From positions 1 through 64,000 of the forward strand of contig NC_090601.1 in assembly GCF_000497125.1 (NCBI RefSeq): 64,000 nucleotides of DNA, in the 5' to 3' direction. Positions 14,165-15,234 of the stretch are shown in pieces (position 1 is the stretch's first letter; each line of letters opens with the position of its first letter). The notes under the pieces are model-generated. The model saw only the letters and a program-made list of their open reading frames with translations. It did not search any database and had not been told where the DNA came from. This stretch comes from Spironucleus salmonicida (taxonomy: Eukaryota). A program made the position numbers and the translations under genes.

Positions 14165-15234
14165 ATGGAGTACAATATACAATCAGACGAAATTCAATTT
14201 TTGATATAAAAAACAAAAAAATACTCGGATGCAACCGTCCGGACCCCAGGAGGTCTAAATTAAAATAATGGTTATGGTTATTTTGGACTTATGGGTTCAG
14301 CAGGAACAGTCAAAACGTATTCAATGAATAAAATAAATTAAGCATATTAGATTAAAGTAAACTATCAAAGTATAATTTAGATGACCCTTATTTAAACAAT
14401 TGAGCTATAACTCATACATTCTTCTTAAGTCCAACTATCGATTGTGATTAAACTTATTAAAAATCAAAAAGCAAAGACAATAGAATTAATATACCATTTG
14501 TTGATTCGAATGGAAGGACTTCAAAATAAAAGTTATTAATGTTATGTTAAGAATTATAGAAAATGAAAACTATTATAAATCTATCATTGATAACATAAGA
14601 TTAGATACGAACTACTTTAAAAGATAAAGAAATTAAAAAATGGAGATCAAAAACTATTCTTTCAAGTTTTTAAAAACATACTTTCACAATTCGAGTGGGT
14701 AAAGCAATAGTAGTAAGAATGTTTAGTTTTATAGAAAGATTGCTTAGGTGATGTTGTTGATTAATATATGTAATTTCTGTATGAATAAATTGGATTGCGT
14801 TTTAATAAATATTGGATATGAAGATAAAAATAGTTTTATTATTAGATGACATGAGTGGAAGTTCTGTATTTCAAATTACAGCTGAATCTGATCTCTATAA
14901 ACTAATTATTTAAAGAAGATATCTTGGAATTTGGGCAACCATTTCATGTTTACATTCTATTAAGAAATTGTATGGACCTTTTAGATAGTTGTTTACAGCT
15001 TTCTTGTTAATGAACGGTCTCAAGGAAGAACATATAAAAGATATCTTTGAGGATATTGGAAGGATAACAAGTTAAGAATTCGAATCGAAATAGTTTATTG
15101 AATTGTATAATAGATCCATTGGCTATTTTGAAAACGACTATTCGAAGAGAGGCTAATTCAAATATAGTTTTTTATATATAATTATTTAACCAGACCCAAT
15201 GATCTTTATAAACTTTGATAAGCAAGTTAAGTGA
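14165..15234 (+). pseudogene. Degenerate A32-like (FtsK-HerA superfamily) viral genome-packaging ATPase
   Basis: ATG at 14165. Walker A GLMGSAGTVKT (14285-14317; G to V substitution). FFLSPTIDCDQTY (about 14419, different frame). Walker B KIVLLLDD (about 14830-14850). LYKLIIQRRYLGIWATISCLHS corresponds to the A32 R-H…Q motif region (about 14911). Ends …FINFDKQVK* (AAG-TGA at 15234). Several frameshifts and internal TGA codons. Confidence 0.7.

Follow-up and report, generated by a model that had tools for sequence, protein, structure and literature searches.

The window analyzed here, the first 64,000 nucleotides (nt) of the forward strand of contig NC_090601.1 of the diplomonad Spironucleus salmonicida (assembly GCF_000497125.1), contains at ~13.9–17.5 kb what we consider, with good confidence, to be what remains of an integrated Polinton/Maverick-like DNA element, now dead and partly deleted. 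This fragment holds a pseudogene for an A32-like ATPase of the FtsK-HerA superfamily and the stump of a neighboring gene that probably encoded a polymerase, along with weaker traces of other genes. A first-pass annotation, made from the letters of the window alone, had proposed that the ATPase locus was the relic of a Polinton-like or virophage-like DNA virus in a diplomonad subtelomere. The evidence that carries our reading comes from the ATPase family and from a homologous metagenome locus, L001, where a member of that family lies close to a protein-primed family-B DNA polymerase (PolB).

The ATPase pseudogene and its family

The ATPase pseudogene occupies positions 14165–15234 of the + strand, with its ATG at 14165 and its stop codon at 15232–15234. 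The four motifs that the first-pass annotation had read, in order, from this frameshifted open reading frame (ORF) were all found in place. A degenerate Walker A motif, GSAGTVKT (14294–14317), is read in phase with the ATG; the other three, all in a frame shifted by two bases, are a strand motif, FFLSPT (14419–14436; THxIYISPS in relatives), an intact Walker B motif, VLLLDD (14833–14850), and an RRY...H block, RRYLGIW...SCLHS (14914–14958). The change of frame falls within 14341–14356, and the intact S. salmonicida homologue P0030 aligns to the locus in two frames. TGA codons interrupt the reading frame at 14401, 14749, 14758, and 14782, and ~25 residues around 14749–14784, corresponding to a KYPEL..KET helix that is conserved in relatives, are absent. 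In addition, the second glycine of the Walker A signature GK[ST], which 90% or more of 28 relatives keep, is replaced by valine in the relic, and a tyrosine stands in place of the histidine of the RRH motif (R223 and H224 of family member P0003), which is invariant in 28 of 28 relatives. A further invariant histidine downstream (H235 of P0003) is retained. Because of the single frameshift, the four TGA codons, the ~25-residue gap, and the substitution of the Walker A glycine and the RRH histidine, the gene is a pseudogene, without function.

Full-length relatives are collinear with 14165–15231 from start codon to stop, across the two frames. When family members were compared with the window by tblastn, 74 of the 75 high-scoring segment pairs fell in the 14–15-kb bins, with E-values against the relic of 2e-41 for P0003 and 8e-37 for the L001 ATPase. 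A phmmer search with the 149-residue piece encoded by 14785–15231 against 1.84 billion representative sequences returned 39 matches at E ≤ 1e-3, 18 of them at E ≤ 1e-10 and two at E ≤ 1e-30, the lowest E-value being 2.9e-67. These matches included two near-copy fragments, 90 and 88% identical to the relic piece, and nine proteins of 304–354 amino acids that aligned at their C-terminal end. One match, P0018 (924 amino acids, six repeated short matches), was apparently a low-complexity false match and was excluded from every alignment.

We considered whether the motif series could be a chance pattern in AT-rich non-coding DNA. Under genetic code table 6, TGA is the sole stop codon, so that long open frames are common in such DNA, and the three open pieces of the relic gave nothing specific in Pfam, PHROGs, or PDB sequences; a protein-atlas look-up of the 149-residue piece likewise returned no result. 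In six frames of the real window, the pattern G..G.[GV]K[ST] occurred twice and hhhDD-15..25-R[RH] once, compared with 0.02 and 0.05 times per 64 kb, respectively, in sequences simulated with an order-3 Markov model trained on 12000–18600 (n = 300), and the ordered motif series appeared in 0 of the 300 simulated 64-kb sequences. Since the patterns were composed after the motifs had been seen, this test is post hoc, and the case rests on homology rather than on simulation. It is the 39 homologues, at E-values down to that of the best match, together with the mapping of family members back onto 14165–15231 as a full-length collinear alignment, that rule out a chance origin, to which we attach a negligible probability.

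Sequencing reads over the relic were also inspected. Two runs guessed to be RNA yielded four short contigs, at 14982–15192 and 15694–16011, which are uninformative on expression; two of the four differ from the window at five places each. A DNA run from this organism, X1, gave 156 short variant contig pieces over the ATPase part, 67 of them at 95–99% likeness, which hints at further near-identical copies of the ATPase relic in the genome. Many X1 contigs over the relic were of 100–200 nt and carried alternative letters. Summed X1 contig depth was several-fold greater over 13900–15230 (the ATPase relic) than over 16200–17500 (the stump of the neighboring gene).

Names were looked up for 28 of the 39 match clusters, and all of these that name an organism name a diplomonad: S. 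salmonicida, Hexamita inflata, or Giardia. In S. salmonicida, SS50377_24087 (P0030) is intact, with 326 amino acids, and SS50377_25156 is a 127-amino-acid fragment. H. inflata accounts for six match clusters, four of which (clusters at 90%) together contain no fewer than 19 protein accessions; a length of 327–354 amino acids is common among its members, and several are fragments. The Giardia cluster, GL50803_25071 (P0015), comprises 97 member sequences at 90% and is intact, at 308–342 amino acids, in several assemblages. The remaining members are proteins from metagenomes or read assemblies, many of merely 74–107 amino acids, a length that is expected if standard-code gene callers cut the genes at TAA and TAG. 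Across 28 relatives, G32 and K33 of Walker A and D200 of Walker B each reach a conservation of 90% or more. A tree of 29 rows, comprising this diplomonad-type ATPase family alone, split into two branches with a Shimodaira–Hasegawa-like approximate likelihood ratio test value of 99: Giardia plus metagenome sequences (11 rows), and Hexamita, Spironucleus, and L001 (18 rows, including the window copy). The same split was obtained at 97/99 in another tree run, in which the first 58 residues of the window copy were out of frame. A multi-copy state with fragments is as expected of a mobile element.

The type of ATPase was assessed through Pfam and through a structural model. No Pfam family matched as many members as Pox_A32 (PF04665), with 7 of 28 at E ≤ 0.001; Adeno_IVa2 matched two of the 28, and the other Pfam families were generic P-loop models. 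Pox_A32 was the top match of P0015 (25.6 bits) and P0020 (27.8 bits), over its gathering score of 22.8 bits, and P0020 also exceeded the Adeno_IVa2 cut-off (23.6 vs. 21 bits). The Hexamita/Spironucleus branch stayed below the Pox_A32 gathering cut-off. An AlphaFold2 model of P0003, made from a 10-sequence alignment, reached a predicted local distance difference test (pLDDT) score of 82.7 and a predicted template modeling score of 0.83. Against BFVD, this model gave 39 matches at E ≤ 1e-3, the best named ones being a Medusavirus A32-like ATPase (8.6e-8) and B354L of African swine fever virus (ASFV; 2.6e-7). Of the best 50 BFVD rows, 15 were named as A32-like or packaging ATPases and 12 had no name; also among the matches listed were adenovirus IVa2 (1.3e-3) and the mavirus FtsK-HerA ATPase (1.1e-3). 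With the latter at rank 42 only, and with nothing seen that is peculiar to virophages, the "virophage-like" part of the first-pass annotation found no specific support, and the type of polymerase described below points to a Polinton/Maverick-like element instead.

Among solved structures, a Foldseek comparison of the P0003 model with the PDB was led by HerA (1.4e-4), EssC, B204 of Sulfolobus turreted icosahedral virus (STIV), and FtsK. In VIA, which is independent of Foldseek, the packaging NTPase B204 of STIV2 ranked first (Z 15.2, root-mean-square deviation 3.0, 178/204 residues), tied with DndH (Z 15.2) and followed by VirB4 (14.7), TdpAB, HerA (13.6–13.7), TcpA, EccC, and FtsK. A profile search of the PDB with family alignment A1 was uninformative, giving only generic P-loop matches of ~40 residues (RecA, UvrA, ABC), and IMG/VR scans with P0020 and P0033 found no relatives. 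Judging by the model, the fold is that of the FtsK-HerA superfamily and the nearest viral relatives are A32-like packaging enzymes. The A32 assignment of the first-pass annotation was supported, and in these comparisons the reconstructed family did not prove a better match to a cellular ATPase family than to A32.

Linkage to confirmed and probable polymerase genes

A metagenome scan with family member P0027 led to L001, 17 kb of a 22-kb metagenome contig with long, densely packed frames under table 6. Here, a full-length homologue of the ATPase (10001–11002, +) lies 4.4 kb from a protein-primed PolB of 1174 amino acids (5647–2126, −), which matches DNA_pol_B_2 (PF03175) at 1.4e-28. Ten TAA or TAG codons lie in the PolB frame and, because three of them fall within the Pfam match, the gene is intact only if these codons are read as glutamine, as in table 6. 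L001 shows that this family of ATPases is carried together with a Polinton-type polymerase by an element that uses the hexamitid code. L001 is in effect the kind of homologous locus, with a replication gene, that the first-pass annotation had suggested looking for, and it lends support to the proposal that the relic is a fragment of an endogenised double-stranded (ds) DNA virus. The protein-primed polymerase was found there; of the other features named alongside it, which include terminal inverted repeats (TIRs), neither a capsid gene nor an integrase was demonstrated in the 17 kb covered. An IMG/VR scan with the L001 PolB found no relatives.

The same polymerase bears on whether the insertion might come from a giant virus (Nucleocytoviricota) instead of a Polinton-like element, as could be argued from the best named structural matches, which are A32-like ATPases of Medusavirus, ASFV, and mimivirids. 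The L001 enzyme is of the protein-primed organellar/viral type (PF03175), and a protein-primed PolB is a hallmark of Polintons, Polinton-like viruses (PLVs), adenoviruses, and linear plasmids rather than of giant viruses. Moreover, the structure library is far richer in giant-virus than in Polinton proteins, so that the ranking is biased, and no other giant-virus core gene was present among the scanned ORFs of the window or L001. We therefore regard a giant-virus origin as very improbable.

Other L001 frames include two with similarity to HNH_3, one an HNH endonuclease (6393–5707, −; 1.1e-8) and the other a weak match (6300–8228, −; 0.0047), both of which lie between the polymerase and a 594-amino-acid ORF (9499–7718, −) that is divergent from the ATPase and is our capsid candidate. 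A small ORF (1583–2122, −) follows the polymerase, and beyond it is an ORF of 528 amino acids (1–1584, −). On the other side of the ATPase, a frame of 486 codons (12488–13945, +) is repeat-rich and fibre-like, with repeats of ~30–40 residues in which ..TDVAALGYLKTVDG.YVTE.EL.T.LADY.. recurs, and is followed by two match-less frames. This part of L001 (12488–13945 and 15221–16315, +) could supply the element with a fibre or spike. By eye, 13998–15221 contains an SDxGxEF-like motif, with N where the catalytic E of an rve integrase is expected. PDB phmmer searches with two L001 ORFs gave nothing relevant.

In the window itself, the gene next to the ATPase relic also has a multi-copy family behind it. 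At 17494–16631 (−) we found the truncated 5′ part of a multi-copy S. salmonicida gene (P0080/P0081), covering residues 12–299 of 876. This stump is contained in a 319-codon frame (17500–16541, −), converges with the ATPase relic on the + strand, and is 76–83% identical to the N-terminal 250–299 residues of its paralogues (tblastn, E 1e-120 to 1e-135); the rest of the gene is absent from the window. The annotated product of the window is a protein of 193 amino acids at 17122–16544 (−), to which P0079 is 100% identical, and its closest named relatives, S. salmonicida proteins, are ~80% identical. The P0081 family consists of SS50377_21560, 21581, 21582, 21614, 21615, 21683, 21684, and 25154. The last of these is only two tags away from the gene SS50377_25156, whose product is the fragment of the ATPase with 90% identity to the relic, meaning that the pairing of the two gene families seen in the window recurs at a second S. 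salmonicida locus.

Several features suggest that the P0081 family probably encodes a polymerase. P0081, the longest paralogue (876 amino acids), has an OTU-like Cys...His pair, a Cys-rich stretch, and three PolB exonuclease-like motifs, which, read by eye, have the order and spacing of ExoI–III as these motifs are defined for family-B polymerases. A similar Cys...His pair and all three exonuclease motifs also occur in the Pfam-verified polymerase of L001, and fragment P0082 carries the UniRef label "DNA-directed DNA polymerase." The stump, which spans the first ~290 codons of the gene, would then derive from a gene whose full-length copies specify a probable protein-primed PolB.

Two weaker traces flank the ATPase relic. 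Directly 3′ of it, an open ORF of 135 codons (15294–15701, +) is weakly similar to the small L001 ORF at 1583–2122 (tblastn E 0.005; pairwise BLASTP 2e-5, 23% identity over 149 residues), with no other match in Pfam or PDB sequences. Upstream, 35 residues encoded by 13925–14029 (+) are 43% identical to residues 474–508 of the 528-amino-acid L001 ORF (tblastn E 0.01, 14 queries tried), and may be a last, weak trace of another element gene. The closely packed decayed ORFs that the first-pass annotation had described around the relic are confirmed in part: 17494–16631 (−) is a truncated gene copy, 15240–15686 (+) is weakly related to an L001 sequence, and the other flanking ORFs had no match.

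A number of results weigh against reading this locus as an element fragment. On the side of the ATPase, the three pieces of the relic reach no A32 model (their best Pfam match was NB-ARC, 0.015), 21 of the 28 family members fall short of Pox_A32 at E ≤ 0.001, and the fold of the model alone cannot separate viral from cellular FtsK-HerA ATPases. On the side of the neighboring gene, the link to polymerases is statistically thin, and P0081–P0089 had no Pfam or PHROG match. BLASTP of the P0081 family against the L001 PolB reached only E 1.9, though its best alignment lay on the ExoII region; hhalign of alignment A2 against the same protein gave nothing; and the local alignment score of the exonuclease parts was reached by 10 of 500 shuffles (z 2.4), with OTU parts and N-termini of P0081 and the L001 PolB not above shuffles. 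An AlphaFold2 model of P0083, for which only near-identical paralogues were available, was unusable (pLDDT 40.3), a PDB phmmer search with P0083 gave nothing relevant, and word-based homologue searches with P0081 residues 560–876 and the 594-amino-acid L001 ORF produced nothing new. That ORF had no match in Pfam, PDB sequences, a 5.8-billion protein set, or IMG/VR, and no capsid protein could be shown in the window or in the part of L001 examined. Nor was an integrase identified: there was no rve Pfam match in the window or L001, and an adenain-type protease was likewise without a Pfam match among the ORFs scanned in both. Finally, 3100–64000 contains no inverted repeat of at least 40 nt, and 11800–24400 holds only short AT-rich inverted pairs, 70–86% complementary, so that no TIRs surround the relic, as is expected for a truncated one.

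Some of these points could be taken to mean that the ATPases are an ordinary cellular gene family of the FtsK-HerA type in diplomonads, and the relic a decayed paralogue without viral or mobile ancestry. The Giardia GL50803_25071 homologue, intact in several assemblages, is compatible with a cellular gene, the structural scores of cellular FtsK-HerA ATPases come close to that of B204, and the missing capsid gene would fit as well. Set against this are the surroundings of the ATPase in L001, a region dense in genes where a protein-primed PolB is 4.4 kb away and an HNH endonuclease is nearby; the large number of copies, many of them fragmentary, in which the family occurs in H. inflata and S. 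salmonicida; its repeated association with P0081-family genes, seen at two places in S. salmonicida; and Pox_A32 being the best specific Pfam family. Taken together, we judge a purely cellular family to be improbable, less so than a giant-virus insertion, and favor the Polinton/Maverick-like element. A conserved packaging-type ATPase in Giardia may be domesticated.

The subtelomeric setting

The locus is subtelomeric, as the first-pass annotation had it. A (CCTA)n repeat, the reverse complement of (TAGG)n, fills positions 1–3110 of the window (~3.1 kb) with sporadic variants, and (TAGG)n is the reported telomere repeat of S. salmonicida (PMC9509377). Two poly-C runs lie inside the telomere repeat, at ~2767–2778 and 2911–2925. 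The assignment to a diplomonad using table 6 was equally sound: a leucyl-tRNA synthetase frame (55843–59295, −; 1150 codons; tRNA-synt_1 match 1e-25) carries 57 in-frame TAA or TAG codons, which identifies table 6 as the right code.

The ATPase relic sits in a stretch of 26% GC that has an array of a 345-bp satellite on either side (9375–11850 and ~24400 to 42200), with up to 46 copies that are 60–99% alike. These arrays show a higher-order spacing of 345/670 nt and many spurious long ORFs under table 6. Two paralogous giant ORFs, at 3486–9122 (−) and 18623–24178 (−), comprise 1878 codons, 94 of them in-frame TAA or TAG, and 1851 codons, 90 of them in-frame TAA or TAG, respectively; long central stretches of the two are nearly identical, their ends are divergent, and neither has a Pfam match. 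Each giant ORF adjoins a block of the 345-bp satellite, and gene plus satellite resembles a duplicated subtelomeric unit. Two further ORFs, at 45956–48844 (+, 962 codons) and 50801–53389 (+, 862 codons), are seemingly paralogous, sharing QNFDIGTGNLA, with Glu/Arg-rich coiled-coil-like tails and no Pfam match. The GC minimum of the window, 0.20, is at 44001–46000. For the ATPase relic, we infer that the element integrated at this site rather than having been copied here along with subtelomeric DNA.

Implications and comparison with known systems

By analogy with Polintons and PLVs, the polymerase of an intact element would copy a linear genome from a protein primer, and the ATPase would act as a ring motor at a capsid vertex, pumping linear dsDNA into a preformed jelly-roll capsid; on the same analogy, the ancestral element would have made capsids. 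The fragment in the window cannot work in this way because its ATPase has lost its frame, the Walker A glycine, and an invariant histidine, and its probable polymerase gene is cut off. The window copy is a fossil, and the value of the finding lies in the family and its intact relatives: L001 has the look of an intact genome that is dense in genes, and intact copies of the ATPase are numerous in H. inflata. We tentatively suggest, as a possibility somewhat short of probable, that diplomonads, including Giardia, host a deep Polinton-like virus lineage of their own in the hexamitid code, which would be active in Hexamita-like cells and present only as relics in Spironucleus, with the Giardia ATPase perhaps domesticated.

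Diplomonads are known as hosts of dsRNA viruses, and Giardia is reportedly associated with CRESS single-stranded DNA viruses (PMC7493932) as well; to our knowledge, no capsid-forming dsDNA virus has been linked to diplomonads before. If our suggestion is true, these would be the first, and the range of Polinton-like elements would widen to the diplomonads, which count a major human parasite and a salmon pathogen among their members. Metamonads would then offer a second example of elements with the same reassigned stop codons as their host, and dozens of "conserved hypothetical" H. inflata genes would receive a name, as would Giardia GL50803_25071.

The kind of element is known, as endogenous Polinton-like elements are widespread in protists. 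For Metamonada, large surveys, in the portions covered here, name parabasalids and Streblomastix strix rather than diplomonads (PMC10120064; preprint 10.64898/2026.06.19.733378). The former places endogenous Polinton-like elements of both hosts in a Metamonada group and reports that those of Streblomastix use TAA and TAG for Gln (PMC10120064); according to the portion of the preprint covered, the Polinton-like elements of this group are still ungrouped (10.64898/2026.06.19.733378). The words Giardia, Spironucleus, and diplomonad are absent from the main text of PMC10120064, whose supplements may list diplomonad matches. A protein-primed DNA polymerase of Giardia intestinalis does stand among the Polinton polymerases in the legend of Fig. 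6 of PMC4642659, so that a Polinton-type replication gene in a diplomonad is already on record; in the portion of the ATPase tree legend (Fig. 5) covered, no Giardia is among the abbreviations. The DNA-virus lineage envisaged by the first-pass annotation is therefore undescribed only in part. Virus, viral, Maverick, and Polinton are never named in the H. inflata genome paper, nor are virus, viral, transpos-, and polymerase in the S. salmonicida genome paper, nor Giardia, Hexamita, Spironucleus, Metamonada, and diplomonad in a 2026 paper on mining of protein-primed PolBs; the supplementary tables of all three may list diplomonad matches. Supplements apart, our literature searches turned up no description of elements of this type, or of an A32-like ATPase, from Spironucleus, Hexamita, or Giardia.

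Features of known Polintons and PLVs that were not demonstrated in the diplomonad material are a capsid gene, an rve integrase, an adenain-type protease, and TIRs. The diplomonad ATPase is long for a Polinton or PLV enzyme, at 304–354 amino acids, and in the model has ~90 residues of long helices between the strand that follows Walker A and Walker B; the polymerase is set apart by the OTU-like N-terminal Cys...His pair, as read by eye. The top solved structure, STIV2 B204 (PDB 4kfr and others), has a sequence identity of 13% and is an archaeal virus protein, ~120 residues shorter and without the helical insertion. With the ATPases of poxviruses (A32) and giant viruses (PF04665), the family has in common Walker A, the strand motif, hhhhDD, R-H, and a polar sensor in the same order, and the Giardia-type branch is above the Pox_A32 cut-off. 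Unlike in A32 ATPases, whose family consensus has Q at the sensor position, the sensor is a histidine in the diplomonad relatives aligned. As in the Polintons and PLVs of protists, an A32-like ATPase is linked to a protein-primed PolB in L001, and the diplomonad elements are integrated, multi-copy, and often decayed. Like the elements of Streblomastix, they have genes in the TAA/TAG = Gln code of their host, and what distinguishes them from the Metamonada group as described is that the host lineage is that of the diplomonads.

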